Below are positions 1-10,997 of a DNA stretch of 11,023 nucleotides, one piece after another. The stretch lies in the UHGV virus genome UHGV-0053823; one strand, 5' to 3'. Origin of the DNA: a virus. Each line of letters begins with the position of its first letter. Position 1 is the first letter of the stretch. The notes beneath the pieces were generated by a model. It was not told the origin of the DNA, made no database searches, and saw only the letters and a list, made by a program, of their open reading frames with translations. The position numbers were made by a program, and so were the translations under genes.

Positions 1-361
1 CCATATCTAACCGGACATTCAGAGCCATAAGCATTCCTTCAATAATACCTTCCGCTTTATAAAGCCTTTTACCAATAAGCCCATCAGAACATCTATGCTT
101 ACGTGCAAGAGCCATAAATGTCATTCCACCTACGTAATAATCCACCAACAAATCGTGCAAATACTGATTATTCTTGTTTAATCGTGCCATACAACCACAA
201 ATTATCATGGCGTCATCATCAGAACACTGAGGACGTGATTTCACTTTAGTCGGGATTAATCCTTTAAAACCAGCAGCTATCGAGGGCCATGTTACATCTT
301 CATGATTATTTGCTGCCCATGCCCCCCATCGCTCAAGAACCATCTGGATATCACGCGCCAT
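1..361 (-). CDS. Antitermination protein Q (phage 82/DLP12 QuuD-like type), 3' end truncated by window edge
   Basis: Minus-strand frame from ATG at 361..359 is open to position 1 (about 120 codons, no stop). Translation begins [37 protein letters not shown]..., which matches my recollection of E. coli prophage Q antiterminators. The start lies 8 nt upstream of the rusA stop, the usual rusA-Q arrangement. Confidence 0.7.
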
Positions 362-722
362 CGTTACCACCTCTGATTTCGTAAATCTTCACGCCCAGCC
401 GTCCACCTGGCACAGGCTGACCGCGCACAATATTGATTTCATCAAACTGCTCGTCATCAATGAGCACTTCCGCATGCGTCAGCGCATCCAGCGGTGCTTT
501 CAGAATGTTGTCCAGGTCACGGCGGCGCTTATCCGGTGGTTCTGCAATAATTTTTATTGCCAGCCGTCCGGACAGGCTTAATTTCAGCCGCTGCTGGCGA
601 ACAATAAGCGCCACTGCCCGGCGATAACGCTTTCCCGTTTCCGATATAAAGTACGTTCCACCACGACGTCGCCAGTAGGTGTTCACCGTTGGCGGGTAAG
701 GCAAAACAAACTCTATACGCAT
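351..722 (-). CDS. rusA: Holliday junction resolvase RusA
   Basis: 123-aa ORF with ATG start and AAGAGG Shine-Dalgarno 6 nt upstream. Sequence ([14 protein letters not shown]..., [29 protein letters not shown]) is characteristic of the RusA endonuclease family, including the catalytic D-rich core. Confidence 0.85.
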
Positions 723-734
723 CAGTAACCTCTT

Positions 735-1784
735 TTACCCGAGCACGCCGGTTGCAAAGGCGTGATCAAGAAAACGAAAAATTAAATCAACCTGGGAACC
801 ATGCTTTTCTTCGAACGCCAGCGGATCCGCATGAAGTTCGTTGTGATGTTCCCGGCACAACGGTAGCGTGAAAATATCGTGGGCCTTTGTTCCCATCCCT
901 CCCTGACCGTGACCAATCAGGTGATGGGGATCGTCGGCTGGCTGACCACAACACGCACACGGCTGTGTCTTCACCCAGCGCGTATATTTCTCATTTACCC
1001 AACGGCGACGTTTAGGTCGCCTCATGAAAGATTCCGGAGACTCTGGATCAACGGTGATGCTTACCACCGTCTTTTCCTGTGATGGGTTTTGTTGCTGGTG
1101 GGCGTGAGGCAACGGTGCAAGATTTTTTGTGCGCTGTTTCAATATGCTGGTGGCGGTCTGCTCTCCCGGTACGATGTCGCTTTCGCGGTACAAGGAGCAG
1201 ATTTTTTCCGCACGTAACCCCAGAGAACGACGTAATACTGCCTCCGGAAGCGCGTCCGCCACCTGATTGCGGACCGCCCACCAGGATAATTCAGCCAGAG
1301 ATAATTCACGCTCCTGCGTACCGCTTATTGCGTGACCGATGACGTCAATCATCCATGCTGACAGGTTTTGATGAGCAAGTTGCTCAAGTGATTCGGATGT
1401 CTGGTCACGCAGCTGGTTGTCGCAGTGCCAGCACAACACCATTGCGCCGGTACCATAACGGTGAATAACGGTTTCGCTGTGATGATAATCGCCGTGTGGC
1501 CACTGGCAGGATTTAATATGGCGCAACAGCCAGTCAGACAATGCACCAGCACCACCAGCAGCACGAATTACCCGTGCGTTACTGAAAAACGGCAGCAATG
1601 TTTTGTCTTCCACCAGCGGCTGGCGAACGGCAGGGACGACTCCGGATGGCAGGCCGCACATGCTTTTCGGTTCCGGCTCCACCAGCACTCGAGGATTGTG
1701 AAATACCTGCATGGATTCACGACCTGGCTTAAGGACCACCAGCCCGAGTTCCGGTACCAGAACAGGTCGAAGTAATACCCGCAC
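735..1784 (-). CDS. DUF968 family phage protein (YdfU-like) with C-terminal Cys/His HNH-like motif
   Basis: 349-aa ORF ending 13 nt before rusA. C-terminal region CACCGQPADDPHHLIGHGQGGMGTKAHDIFTLPLCREHHNELH resembles the DUF968/YdfU family found beside Q in Qin-type prophages. The start is a non-ATG codon (GTG at 1784), so the true start is uncertain. Confidence 0.6.
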   Translation of the reverse strand: MRVLLRPVLVPELGLVVLKPGRESMQVFHNPRVLVEPEPKSMCGLPSGVVPAVRQPLVEDKTLLPFFSNARVIRAAGGAGALSDWLLRHIKSCQWPHGDYHHSETVIHRYGTGAMVLCWHCDNQLRDQTSESLEQLAHQNLSAWMIDVIGHAISGTQERELSLAELSWWAVRNQVADALPEAVLRRSLGLRAEKICSLYRESDIVPGEQTATSILKQRTKNLAPLPHAHQQQNPSQEKTVVSITVDPESPESFMRRPKRRRWVNEKYTRWVKTQPCACCGQPADDPHHLIGHGQGGMGTKAHDIFTLPLCREHHNELHADPLAFEEKHGSQVDLIFRFLDHAFATGVLG

Positions 1785-1785
1785 G

Positions 1786-2058
1786 TTACCTCCAGATCCG
1801 TTGCTGGAATGTGCGGGACGGACGCGGTGGGCGTTCGGAGTAAGGGAGCCTGACGGAGATTATCCAGTGACGGTAGTCAAGGCTAAGGGCTTTTTTAACC
1901 TCGCATCCGCGCCTACGGTAACACTGAATCAGCCGTTCGGCCTGTTCTTCAGTGCATGGGGGATGCTGATACCAGTCATATTTGAATGCGTGCGAACGCC
2001 GCCCGTGCCTGCTGGCACGAACGGTATCAGAATTGTGTAATTTGGTCTTGTGCGCCAT
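1786..2058 (-). CDS. Hypothetical small basic protein upstream of the DUF968 gene (start uncertain; longest frame reaches 2112 with a TTG start)
   Basis: Open frame 1786..2112 with a non-repetitive, protein-like sequence (HAFKYDWYQHPPCTEEQAERLIQCYRRRGCEVKKALSLDYRHW). First ATG is at 2058; no convincing SD. Stop lies 2 nt before the DUF968 start codon. Confidence 0.25.
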   Translation of the reverse strand: MAHKTKLHNSDTVRASRHGRRSHAFKYDWYQHPPCTEEQAERLIQCYRRRGCEVKKALSLDYRHWIISVRLPYSERPPRPSRTFQQRIWR

Positions 2059-2128
2059 CTGTTTTCTCTGCTGGCGCAGCAGGTGCCAGTTGTTCAGGCT
2101 GGCGTGCGGCAATATTGTCTCTGATTTC

Positions 2129-2158
2129 TGTTGTCGTCAACAGGCAGCGTGCTATCAT
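2129..2158 (+). promoter_or_regulatory. Putative sigma70 promoter of the TA operon with an overlapping palindromic operator
   Basis: TTGTCG (about 2131-2136), 16-nt spacer, TATCAT (about 2153-2158), roughly 36 nt upstream of the antitoxin ATG. Inverted repeat TGTTG-N4-CAACA (about 2129-2142) overlaps the -35, as expected for an autoregulated TA promoter. Confidence 0.3.
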
Positions 2159-2193
2159 CGAATAGTGTTCTATCCTACTCCGTGAGGTTTACC

Positions 2194-2451
2194 ATGCGTA
2201 CAACCCAACAATTCAGCATTACATTAACTAACGAGATGGCTGACATGGTGCGCGCCCGTGTGGCTTCCGGTGCCTATGCTTCAGAAAGCGAGGTCATTCG
2301 TGAAGGGCTTCGCGCACTGAATGAGCGCGATAAAGCAATCGAAGCGTGGTTAACGCATTCAGCCGCCCCCGCTCTTGATTCTATCCGCGAAAATCCAAAC
2401 AACGGACGCTCCATTTCACAGGTTCGCGCCGCGATTCGATCCGGGAAGTAA
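2194..2451 (+). CDS. Type II antitoxin, ribbon-helix-helix ParD-like
   Basis: 85-aa ORF from internal ATG 2194 with GAGG SD 6 nt upstream (the track ORF from 2131 is probably an over-extension). About 85 aa, sitting 5 nt upstream of a ParE/RelE-like toxin gene. The N-terminal region (FSITLTNEMADMVRARVASGAYASESEVIREGLRAL) looks like an RHH DNA-binding fold. Confidence 0.75.
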   Translation: MRTTQQFSITLTNEMADMVRARVASGAYASESEVIREGLRALNERDKAIEAWLTHSAAPALDSIRENPNNGRSISQVRAAIRSGK

Positions 2452-2456
2452 TCTGC

Positions 2457-2756
2457 ATGACATATGAAGTCATCATTACCCCCGAGGCCGAACAGCAGAT
2501 AATAAACCTGCACAGATATATAACGGAGAAAGCAGGAAGCGTCATTGCTGACAATTATGCCAATGCGCTTCTTGATTATCTTGATGGGTTTTCTACATTC
2601 CCGCATCGGGGCAATAAACGCGATGATATTCGCCAGGGAATGCGGGTAACTCACTTCCGCCACAGAACGATTATTGCTTTTGCCGTTGACGGCAATAAAG
2701 TCTTTATCGCGGGTATTTATCATGGTGGGCAAAGCTATGAAGCCGATTTCTTATAA
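2457..2756 (+). CDS. Type II toxin, ParE/RelE superfamily
   Basis: 99-aa ORF starting 5 nt after the antitoxin stop. Size and C-terminal pattern (RVTHFRHRTIIAFAVDGNKVFIAGIYHGGQSYEADF) are typical of ParE/RelE-fold toxins; antitoxin-toxin gene order fits. Confidence 0.75.
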   Translation: MTYEVIITPEAEQQIINLHRYITEKAGSVIADNYANALLDYLDGFSTFPHRGNKRDDIRQGMRVTHFRHRTIIAFAVDGNKVFIAGIYHGGQSYEADFL

Positions 2757-2836
2757 ACTTTTACCCACATCATTCCGGTGTTAAAATAAACCGTCCGCCC
2801 CCTCTCTTACTGGCGGATTCGTAGGCTATATAAATC

Positions 2837-2873
2837 AAAGATCCCGGCTCGTGTATGCGTCAGGATCTTTTTT
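2837..2873. terminator. Probable bidirectional intrinsic terminator between convergent genes
   Basis: Stem AAAGATCC / GGATCTTT (8 bp) around an 18-nt loop, followed by TTTTTT on the plus strand and a U-rich tract on the minus strand. Lies between the toxin stop (2756) and the end of the minus-strand operon (2881). Confidence 0.45.
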
Positions 2874-2880
2874 CGGTGAT

Positions 2881-2964
2881 TTATCCCCAGCGGCAAATCG
2901 CATACACCACCAGCGCCACCGCCATTGCAATTCCTACCGTTGTGAATGCTTCAGGCCAGGTCAT
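2881..2964 (-). CDS. 27-aa hydrophobic peptide (MTWPEAFTTVGIAMAVALVVYAICRWG), predicted single-pass membrane peptide
   Basis: Too short for the ORF track. Its ATG overlaps the DUF551 gene stop (ATGA) and has a GGAGGA SD 9 nt upstream. Hydrophobic core of about 20 residues flanked by charged or aromatic ends; followed by the terminator hairpin. Confidence 0.4.
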   Translation of the reverse strand: MTWPEAFTTVGIAMAVALVVYAICRWG

Positions 2965-3623
2965 CGTAAAATATCCTCCACGCTTATCAGTCCGTTCCGC
3001 TCCAGATAACTCATCGCCTTATCCGGTAATTTGCAGTCTGGCTTCGCTTTCCTCAGTTGACTGACCAATTGCTTAACCAGCATGGTTAATTCGTTAACCT
3101 GTTTTCCGGATGCTTGTGGATTGTCAGTTTTACCAGAAGTGTCGGTACAGTCGGCGTTCCCACTCTTCTCCTCCTGCGGCGGTTCCGGTAGCGGCATCCA
3201 GTGAGTTGCTTGCTCAATACCATTACCCGGCTTAATCGTTGCATCTCCGCGCCGGAATGTGCTTCCGGTATAGCGTGCGGAGCATATTAGCGGCTCAACC
3301 AGATCACTATCGAAATTCACCGAAATAAGTACGTTCTGATTCTTTTTCGGCATTCGCTCACTACAGCTTATCCAACCATCCGGAGTTACCGAAACTGGCG
3401 ACGCGGCATATAGTGGTTTAGGCGATATCTCCGCGCGTTTTGCGTATGCTTCAACTGTGTCAGGGTTAAACAGGATTATGTTTTCACCGCATTCCCACGC
3501 CACCGGCTCTGCTTCCAGCGATGCCAGCGCAATACGTGCAATTTGTCGAATCTCATCGTTAACGTTGCACATGCGCGGGTCATTGACGTACTGCTCAATG
3601 CGTTCTCTGCTAATAGTGGCCAT
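2961..3623 (-). CDS. DUF551 domain phage protein with Ea22-like N-terminal segment
   Basis: 220-aa ORF containing the WISCSERMPKKNQNVLISV ... THWMPLPEPP signature of DUF551. ATG start with AAAGGAGAG SD, 1 nt after the upstream stop. Confidence 0.7.
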   Translation of the reverse strand: MATISRERIEQYVNDPRMCNVNDEIRQIARIALASLEAEPVAWECGENIILFNPDTVEAYAKRAEISPKPLYAASPVSVTPDGWISCSERMPKKNQNVLISVNFDSDLVEPLICSARYTGSTFRRGDATIKPGNGIEQATHWMPLPEPPQEEKSGNADCTDTSGKTDNPQASGKQVNELTMLVKQLVSQLRKAKPDCKLPDKAMSYLERNGLISVEDILR

Positions 3624-3957: not shown

Positions 3958-4832
3958 GCCACCACCTCTTCGAATTTCAACTCCAATTGATCACCCCAGA
4001 TTTCACATGATTCGGAACACGAACCAGTATCAAACCGCCTGGCTTGCACCATCGCCTGATACAAATTACTGTAGTCACTGTCGGCATACATTCTGGCAAT
4101 CCCGTCAAGCGTCAGGTGGCCACGGTACATAACGTCTTTTCCTGTTCTGCGATGACCATCCCTGACGTGTTTGCCTGTAACCAGTTCATTAAAAAACCGC
4201 ATCAGACCAGGTTCGTCTTTACATGCAAGCCCCAGCTTTTGCGTTGACTTTTTGATGCAGAAAACACAGTTCCCGAGGTGCTCTGGGATTTGCAAATCAA
4301 AAGGTTGTGCTCGCCACCACCGGATAACATCCGACTTATCAAAATGTGACAGTTCGGCAAGATACCGGACGCCCGGTTTCGGTTTCAGCCTACGGTGTTC
4401 GTCCGCACGAATACCCAGCCATGTGATGTAATTCCCTCGTCCGAAATGGTCATCGCAATATTTCGTGAAAGGGGTGAGTTTTAGCCTGTCAGTACAGAAC
4501 GCGCCGCCGATGTATGGCGTGCCGTACTTTTTAACCATATCCATAAACGGTTTAAGCACCGGCATTCGCGTCTGAATATCCTTTGGTTCCCATTCCGTAT
4601 AACTATTTGGCTGCCCAAGCTCTGGATTTATATCGACCTGCAACACGGTTAGTGGAATATCCCAGAACTTCACGACTTCCCGAATAAATCGGTATGTCAG
4701 CGGGTGTTCACATCCCGTATCCATGAATATGTAATGAACGTTTTCACCTGCCTTTCTGCGTTGCTCCATAAGGTGAACGAGATACGCCGATGTACGACCG
4801 CCTGAAAAACTCACAACATGATGAGCGCTCAT
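3954..4832 (-). CDS. PAPS reductase-like / PP-loop ATP pyrophosphatase family enzyme
   Basis: 292-aa ORF with N-terminal PP-loop motif VVSFSGGRTSAYL and C-terminal cysteine pairs (NCVFC, GSCSESC) suggesting a metal or Fe-S site. ATG start at 4832. Confidence 0.7.
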   Translation of the reverse strand: MSAHHVVSFSGGRTSAYLVHLMEQRRKAGENVHYIFMDTGCEHPLTYRFIREVVKFWDIPLTVLQVDINPELGQPNSYTEWEPKDIQTRMPVLKPFMDMVKKYGTPYIGGAFCTDRLKLTPFTKYCDDHFGRGNYITWLGIRADEHRRLKPKPGVRYLAELSHFDKSDVIRWWRAQPFDLQIPEHLGNCVFCIKKSTQKLGLACKDEPGLMRFFNELVTGKHVRDGHRRTGKDVMYRGHLTLDGIARMYADSDYSNLYQAMVQARRFDTGSCSESCEIWGDQLELKFEEVVA

Positions 4833-10187: not shown

Positions 10188-10832
10188 TTAAAGATTAACG
10201 TTGAAACCAAAGCGGGAAGATTTTTCCGATGTACGGGAAATATCCAGCAATTTACGGCGCATTTCTTCCGTCAGATGTTTGAAAGCGTTAAATTCGGCAA
10301 CAGCGGCGTCAACGTTATAGCCCTTGCTGTGTAGTTCGTTGAGGATGCGCATAGTTGGGCTTGGCATATCGAAGAGCACGGAAGCATCAAGGCTGATAAC
10401 TTTGCGATCAACATAATTCATCGTGGCGTAGGGGTGATGCTCAGAAAACCACGATAAAGGGAAATTGATGTTCATCGCAGGAGAAGACAGGGCCAGTTGT
10501 TTCTGTTCCCATAGTTGTTTTTCCATGCGATCGAATTCAGCGATGTAGGCTTCTTTGAAAGCTGCGGCTTTTTTACCAGTGAATCCCATTACCAGGAAGA
10601 CGAAGCCGTTTTTGGTGATTTGATAGGCGTTATAGGTATTACCCCGGTGTTCGAATTTAACCCGCGAAAAGTTGCTGGTTAAGAATTGTTCAGAGCATTC
10701 AAGGGATTCTATTTTCTGAACAACATGGTGATGCTGCTTCTCAAAGAACTCTGCGATGTCAATTGACGTAGTGATGGCATTGCCGTTTTCAATAGTTACG
10801 GATGGGCGAGAAAGGGGAGATATAGTAGCCAT
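10188..10832 (-). CDS. Phage regulatory protein, Rha family
   Basis: 214-aa ORF from internal ATG 10832 preceded by a consensus SD (AAGGAGG, 9-nt spacing). N-terminal domain ITTSIDIAEFFEKQHHHVVQKIESLE ... YQITKNGFVFLVMGFTGKKAAAFKEAYIAEFDRMEKQL matches the Rha domain. Confidence 0.75.
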   Translation of the reverse strand: MATISPLSRPSVTIENGNAITTSIDIAEFFEKQHHHVVQKIESLECSEQFLTSNFSRVKFEHRGNTYNAYQITKNGFVFLVMGFTGKKAAAFKEAYIAEFDRMEKQLWEQKQLALSSPAMNINFPLSWFSEHHPYATMNYVDRKVISLDASVLFDMPSPTMRILNELHSKGYNVDAAVAEFNAFKHLTEEMRRKLLDISRTSEKSSRFGFNVNL

Positions 10833-10997
10833 GGTGGCAGCCTCCTTGATTGGTGATTGATAACCACCGCCGGAGGTCCTAAACTCGCTGGCGGTGGACT
10901 GTACAGGGTTAGGACTACTGGCAATCAAGGGAACCAGCCCGACCGAAGTCGGCCCCATACAGCCCACCATTGATAAGATGTGCGTGCATGTCGATAC

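Follow-up and report, generated by a model that had tools for sequence, protein, structure and literature searches.

The window, i.e. the whole stretch of 11,023 nucleotides of virus genome UHGV-0053823 that was analysed, carries a real gene pair which belongs by family to the ParD/ParE-type toxin-antitoxin (TA) systems. We consider it rather probable that the pair is an autoregulated type II ParD/ParE cassette, a selfish accessory cargo in the nin region of an E. coli lambdoid prophage, lying antisense to the early rightward operon. The initial annotation had described a TA pair of cargo type on the strand opposite to its neighbours, and in these respects it was borne out, while its operator palindrome, its private terminator and its placement of the pair at a junction did not hold. 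The pair is already known from routine annotation in RefSeq, GenBank and PHROGs, and the discovery value is low, the finding being correct in substance but ordinary. A literature search by accession number or phage name returned no experimental work on this exact pair.

Family assignment and closest known systems

2194-2451, + strand: parD, 85 aa, ribbon-helix-helix antitoxin, with a GAGG ribosome-binding site at 2184-2187
2457-2756, + strand: parE, 99 aa, ParE-type toxin
Family-supported neighbours, - strand: RusA, DUF968, phrog_1212, DUF551, Ead/Ea22, PAPS reductase, DUF2303, exonuclease, RecT and Rha

The two genes are separated by 5 nt and form an antitoxin-first bicistron on the + strand, while all family-supported neighbours are found on the - strand, as had been claimed. 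ParD matched the Pfam family ParD_antitoxin (PF03693; E 1.6e-7, 32.1 bits against a cut-off of 21), the NCBIfam model TIGR02606 'type II toxin-antitoxin system ParD family antitoxin' (1.5e-14, 53.8 bits against a cut-off of 46.2) and, as a full-length family, phrog_6494 'antitoxin' (3.9e-56). ParE covered the full-length profile of ParE_toxin (PF05016; E 5.8e-10, 40 bits against a cut-off of 23) and matched the full-length family phrog_5232 'toxin' (2.2e-42). Both PHROGs families are assigned to the category 'moron'. This category and the patchy presence of the pair uphold its description as accessory cargo: matches were found in 369 of 5,426 complete E. coli genomes, with at least 80% of the query covered in 328 of them, counted as full copies. 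PGAP labels the E. coli matches as ParD antitoxin and RelE/ParE toxin, and in phage ArgO145 the existing annotation names gp08 as antitoxin and gp09 as toxin. Some E. coli genomes contain two matching places.

In a sequence search of the PDB, the N-terminus of ParD matched the solved ParD chains 3kxe, 7ycv, 6x0a, 7b22 and 8c24, while ParE gave a single and weak match (E 0.043), which is itself a ParE (6x0a). An AlphaFold2 model of ParE, for which an alignment of 19 homologues served as input, reached a mean pLDDT of 88.7. When this model was compared with the PDB by Foldseek, ranks 1-22 were all ParE-type toxins (TM 0.75-0.82), including those of Mesorhizobium, M. tuberculosis (ParE1), V. cholerae (ParE2), P. 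aeruginosa, Caulobacter (ParE1) and O157 (ParE2), as well as PrpT and PfiT. RelE, YoeB and YafQ appeared further down the ranking (TM 0.45-0.67), and the modelled fold is nearer to ParE than to these toxins. The assignment as a ParD/ParE type II system is thus upheld by Pfam, NCBIfam, PHROGs, PDB sequence matches and Foldseek, and the possibility that homology would place the pair in a non-TA family did not materialise, both genes falling in TA families in Pfam, NCBIfam and PHROGs.

It could be argued that the toxin is a RelE-like ribosome-dependent mRNA endonuclease and not a gyrase poison, since PF05016 and the RefSeq name cover RelE and ParE alike, RelE, YoeB and YafQ are among the lower fold matches, and histidine and arginine residues are conserved in the family (H66, R68, H69 and H89). 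We regard this as most improbable. The 22 best fold matches are all ParE-type, with TM about 0.8 compared to at most 0.67 for RelE-type toxins, the sole PDB sequence match is a ParE, and the accompanying antitoxin, a ribbon-helix-helix protein of the CC2985 family, is of ParD type and not of RelB type.

The solved ParD/ParE systems (Caulobacter ParD1-ParE1, 3kxe; Mesorhizobium ParDE, 5ceg/6x0a; M. tuberculosis ParDE1, 8c24; V. cholerae ParD2-ParE2, 7r5a) have the same antitoxin-first operon and share with the window pair the ribbon-helix-helix N-terminus of the antitoxin and the toxin fold (TM about 0.8). However, their toxins are just 15-23% identical to the window ParE, and the subfamily of the window has its own motif, FPxRGNxRDDIRxGxRxTHFRHRT, conserved in the alignment of toxin homologues, as well as its own operator-like palindrome. 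The closest plasmid relatives are KluA/KluB of the IncP-1beta plasmids (R751 and relatives), in which a ParD-family gene also lies upstream of the toxin gene and KluB is 46% identical to ParE over 96% of the length. KluA/KluB are annotated as plasmid stability genes ('plasmid stability protein') and are plasmid-borne, whereas parDE of the window belongs to the nin region of a prophage and runs antisense to the operon around it.

PaaR2-PaaA2-ParE2 of the E. coli O157:H7 prophages (5czf, 5cw7) also includes a ParE-type toxin in a lambdoid prophage, with a fold TM of about 0.8. This system is reportedly three-component, with a PaaA2 antitoxin that has no DNA-binding domain and a separate regulator. 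The window does not show the PaaR-PaaA-ParE organisation, given that two genes are found between promoter and hairpin and the antitoxin has a ribbon-helix-helix domain. Finally, prophage-borne toxins of the ParE superfamily, like that of the window, are known from ParESO/CopASO, which maintains the excised CP4So prophage (PMC8706911), and from PfiT/PfiA, which controls Pf4 production (PMC7264888), PfiT being fold match number 2. Hosts, phage types and antitoxin families differ from those of the window; moreover, the roles of these two systems have been demonstrated, while the window pair is known from sequence.

In 13 of the 15 loci examined, the ParE homologue is immediately preceded by a ParD of this subfamily, and the ParDs of these loci have the N-terminus MRTTQQFSITLPNEMA... 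in common. The paired loci come from Salmonella, Yersinia, Pantoea, Paraburkholderia, Polynucleobacter, Dyella, Desulfovibrio and others. Comparison with the Salmonella copy gave dN/dS values of 0.08 for parD and 0.10 for parE, so that both genes are under purifying selection. Between the window and ArgO145, dS was 0.016 in parD and 0.256 in parE; this uneven divergence inside the cassette suggests recombination between the two genes. In Yersinia similis (L012, about 3996-4284) the parE homologue is apparently frameshifted after approximately 24 codons and parD is intact, so that this copy appears to be a decaying locus leaving an orphan antitoxin.

Promoters, palindrome and candidate operator

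2111-2140, - strand: putative relic of an isrK-type promoter, -35 TTGACG at 2140-2135, 18-nt spacer, -10 AATATT at 2116-2111
2128-2143, strand not applicable: palindrome CTGTTG-tcgt-CAACAG, at the overlap of two divergent -35 boxes
2131-2158, + strand: predicted parD promoter, -35 TTGTCG at 2131-2136, 16-nt spacer, extended -10 TGcTATCAT at 2150-2158
2161-2179, + strand: candidate ParD operator AATAGTGTTCTATCCTACT, with the core TAG-N9-CTA, overlapping the predicted transcription start

The predicted parD promoter matches at 9 of 12 positions, with the TG present. The promoter scan returned 3 sites when 2.1 were expected, so that the promoter is supported by its conservation and not by the match as such: six copies from E. 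coli, Salmonella and Yersinia show little or no variation in CGTGCTA and the -10 region. On the - strand, a start is predicted near 2104, aimed at a 90-aa ORF and then at DUF968, RusA and Q. According to Rfam, isrK and C4 RNAs are encoded on the - strand immediately left of the cassette in ArgO145, in ATCC 43889 and in a prophage of Salmonella, and in all three the - strand -35 and -10 hexamers are at the canonical distance from the Rfam isrK 5' end. In the window isrK is gone and the - strand -10 is degraded (CAATATT compared to CTATATT); judging from these comparisons, the isrK-type promoter seems to survive as a weakened relic carried with the cassette. Rfam at E <= 1 returned no RNA family over 1700-3200. 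A tRNA 3' end or att site left of the cassette in ArgO145, Salmonella and Yersinia (GGGGTTCGAATCC...) was also considered and rejected, as ARAGORN detected no tRNA and Rfam identified isrK and C4 RNAs on the - strand.

The initial annotation had reported a promoter with a palindrome over its -35 box and had proposed this palindrome as the antitoxin binding site. The palindrome and the promoter-like site do exist, the exact form of the former being CTGTTG-N4-CAACAG, although 16% of dinucleotide shuffles of the intergenic region (135 bp) also yield an inverted repeat with 6-bp arms, which weakens the claim. A repeat search in 2040-2200 at set thresholds returned nothing, and the palindromes came from a custom scan. 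The two overlapping -35 hexamers suffice to explain the TTG-N4-CAA symmetry, and the palindrome is probably a product of these divergent boxes and not a ParD operator. It is kept in E. coli and Salmonella, but in Yersinia similis its left (parD-side) arm is broken, despite the retention there of the - strand hexamers, the parD extended -10 and the DNA-reading N-terminus of ParD. In the upstream regions of distant relatives the custom scan did not recover it; these relatives share another palindrome instead. It is likewise missing from isrK promoters that do not adjoin parD, which speaks against an operator. We thus could not retain the palindrome as the antitoxin binding site.

The opposite view is that the palindrome is a genuine regulator site, through which ParD or another protein co-regulates parDE and the divergent promoter facing DUF968-RusA-Q. 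In favour of this, the repeat with its 6-bp arms coincides exactly with both -35 boxes, E. coli and Salmonella copies alike retain it, and among isrK-type promoters only those adjoining parD carry it, while those without an adjacent parD have the -35 box and no palindrome. Furthermore, a transcription start has been mapped in Gifsy-1 approximately 1.6 kb upstream of the Q-like antQ gene (PMC4825925). We nevertheless find a regulator site at this position unlikely, considering the arm broken in Yersinia next to an unchanged ParD N-terminal strand, the different palindrome of distant relatives with the same ParD N-terminus, the chance rate in shuffles, a symmetry already accounted for by the -35 hexamers and the degraded - strand -10 of the window.

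An even bolder proposal starts from the same overlap. With the -35 boxes of parD and of the isrK-type promoter overlapping, RNA polymerase or a bound regulator would serve one direction at a time. The cassette would then bring along a two-faced promoter, and the state of the TA pair could gate a late-gene antiterminator or an antirepressor, linking TA homeostasis to the induction decision, a scenario that we consider quite improbable. If true, the leftward face would aim at DUF968-RusA-Q in the nin context and would drive isrK-C4-antirepressor in Stx-phage left arms. A second inverted repeat, CTGCTG-gcg-CAGCAG, was observed at 2068-2082, just upstream of the start of the 90-aa ORF (- strand); only 1% of shuffles of this intergenic region contain two repeats whose arms reach 6 bp or more.

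Returning to the other palindrome, the one shared by distant relatives, 9 of the 12 non-window loci, which belong to other genera, have a perfect (A)GTAGGATTAAATCCTAC(T)-type inverted repeat 18-40 nt upstream of parD, and 3 more carry an imperfect GTAGGATTAAATCCTAC-type copy at the same place; in the relatives this palindrome falls at the putative transcription start. The corresponding window element at 2161-2179 agrees with the palindrome of the relatives at 14 positions out of 19 and has the same TAG-N9-CTA core, its left half being degenerate relative to the distant relatives (4/7 positions). It occurs once in the window, and the E. coli, Salmonella and Yersinia copies differ in it at one T/A position only. 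Since the N-terminal strand of ParD is conserved along with the element, 2161-2179 is taken as the likely ParD site.

Cassette limits, 3' hairpin and mosaic structure of the window

2111-2880 (end approximate), + strand: exchangeable parDE cassette, delimited by comparison and comprising the promoter region, parD, parE and the 3' hairpin
2837-2873, strand not applicable: hairpin with U-runs on either strand, resembling a bidirectional terminator and placed between the convergent parE and 27-aa ORF
2881-2964, - strand: 27-aa hydrophobic ORF MTWPEAFTTVGIAMAVALVVYAICRWG, the ATG of which overlaps the TGA stop of DUF551 (ATGA)

Homology to hokD-bearing nin regions ends at 2108 and resumes at 2883, homology to ArgO145 begins at 2111, and homology to Salmonella spans 2111-2754. 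Positions 1-3530 of the window are collinear with the nin region of the ECOR29 prophage, and within this region 1613-3293 is the same sequence with a single mismatch (position 2371). From 3170 on, the sequence agrees at 97.7% with 7.1_Anguil, namely with the left arm of this Stx-type prophage integrated at argW. Mismatch mapping locates the switch from the ECOR29 nin type to the Stx-phage left-arm type at 3259-3293, inside the DUF551 ORF and approximately 500 bp past the parE stop. The pair had been placed at the junction between two phage segments; according to this mapping it lies inside the nin-type block, and the seam is elsewhere. A further mosaic boundary was noted near 1612, in the DUF968 gene.

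The join at 3259-3293 is absent from the 5,426 complete E. coli genomes and from IMG/VR, and an exact-protein look-up for it elsewhere returned solely the metagenome contig of the window itself (ENA ERZ1304315 NODE_3053, coverage 2.84x). Given this coverage and the absence of the join from complete genomes and IMG/VR, it may be an assembly chimera across the repeated DUF551 segment, or it may be a real recombinant.

Regarding the 3' end, the pair had been credited with a terminator of its own. A hairpin at 2837-2870 with a U-run is indeed present, but it can form in both directions, more stably on the - strand (-17.1 kcal/mol, z -5.0) than on the + strand (-12.8 kcal/mol, z -1.6); a strict terminator scan found no terminator. 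As the hairpin is situated between parE and the convergent 27-aa ORF, it is a shared element and not a private terminator of parDE. The 27-aa ORF, for which PHROGs gave no match, is probably an unannotated small membrane protein. ECOR29 retains it, as does ArgO145 (one substitution); O157 strain Z1767 has a diverged copy, MIWPEAFAITGVAIAIDFLVYVICRWG, after a DUF551 gene, and in strain ST130 there is a premature stop.

At the far end of the window, a C4 antisense RNA was detected at 10887-10974 on the - strand (Rfam, 78.9 bits). Because it overlaps the first approximately 28 codons of the 260-aa Rha/Ash ORF (10188-10970), the real Rha start is probably the internal methionine of MATIS.... In related phages isrK is located just upstream of C4, which in the window would correspond to a position at or beyond the window end.

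Alternative modules in the slot and proposed function

The slot of the cassette is occupied in other prophages by a different TA module. At the nin junction, hokD was found on the phage strand in 2,833 of the 5,426 complete E. coli genomes, i.e. in more than half of those searched, and parDE in 328. In the Qin prophage of K-12, relB-relE-hokD-rem is located upstream of ydfU (DUF968), the product of which is 87% identical to the DUF968 protein of the window. Both relBE-hokD in Qin and hokD in other lambdoid prophages hold the equivalent slot upstream of the DUF968 (YdfU)-RusA-Q block. Their toxins are unrelated to ParE, RelE being an mRNase and Hok a membrane peptide with an RNA antitoxin, and relBE-hokD lies on the phage-gene strand whereas parDE lies on the opposite one. 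The 90-aa ORF of the window was also compared with the Qin gene rem, and the two have no similarity.

A second slot is situated in Stx-phage left arms (42 genomes), beside isrK-C4-antirepressor. It holds parDE in ArgO145 and is empty in 7.1_Anguil. In the Stx2a prophage of ATCC 43889 (L003 6954-7931) it contains an orphan ParD, and parE is replaced there by a lipoprotein-like ORF of 90 aa and an orphan HigA. Relatives at equivalent slots therefore carry hokD, an orphan ParD with HigA, or nothing, in line with the prediction of the initial annotation. The 90-aa protein after the orphan ParD in O157 Stx2a phages was examined as a hidden toxin, which it probably is not, since neither Pfam nor the PDB gave a match and its signal (TSGC) is lipoprotein-like. 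The orphan ParD of ATCC 43889 is full-length and 87% identical to the window ParD. This ParD and the HigA have been noted before as orphan antitoxins, and it was suggested that such antitoxins might counter host toxins (PMC12502783). The orphan ParD of the Stx2a prophage could neutralise the ParE of a co-resident prophage. The comparative picture is of modest value, as a natural system for asking why prophages swap TA modules, and it also fits the question whether orphan antitoxins of Stx phages disarm the toxin of a neighbour.

These slots also bear on the view that the cassette is mainly an anti-phage defence, acting in abortive infection or superinfection exclusion: host shut-off would be followed by ParD decay, and ParE would stop the cell. 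Being moron-type cargo under a promoter of its own, the pair would be active in a lysogen, the turnover of the slot between TA modules is typical of defence hotspots, and a related Stx-phage group carries the orphan ParD mentioned above, of the kind proposed to counter host toxins. However, PADLOC models gave no match to either protein at E <= 0.01, phage defence mediated by ParDE of this subfamily was not found in the literature, and the nearest plasmid relatives are annotated as plasmid-stability genes. A mainly defensive role is thus possible in our opinion, yet doubtful.

In the explanation that we prefer, that of an autoregulated selfish cassette, the extended -10 promoter at 2131-2158 would drive transcription of parDE in a lysogen. 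ParD, as a dimer and with or without ParE, would bind 2161-2179 over the transcription start and repress the operon, and the C-terminal part of ParD would wrap and neutralise ParE. Should ParD synthesis stop, with the region lost or shut off, and the remaining ParD be degraded, free ParE would poison DNA gyrase and cause DNA damage and growth arrest. The net effect would be that loss of the prophage segment is penalised. The half-degenerate left arm of the operator (4/7) and the disrupted parE of Yersinia similis count against this explanation. Moreover, the benefit of addiction is arguable, because a chromosomal prophage is rarely lost. One may also speculate that lytic transcription interferes with parDE, since the pair reads against the antiterminated early operon.

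Gyrase as the target of ParE is inferred from the family. ParE toxins are associated with gyrase inhibition and SOS induction (PMC10203498). Two further points count against the preferred explanation: the toxin matches solved ParE chains weakly by sequence (E 0.043), and some ParE homologues are weakly toxic, or protective against anti-gyrase antibiotics (PMC6368863). A ParE that damages DNA in an SOS-inducible Stx or lambdoid lysogen could also influence induction.
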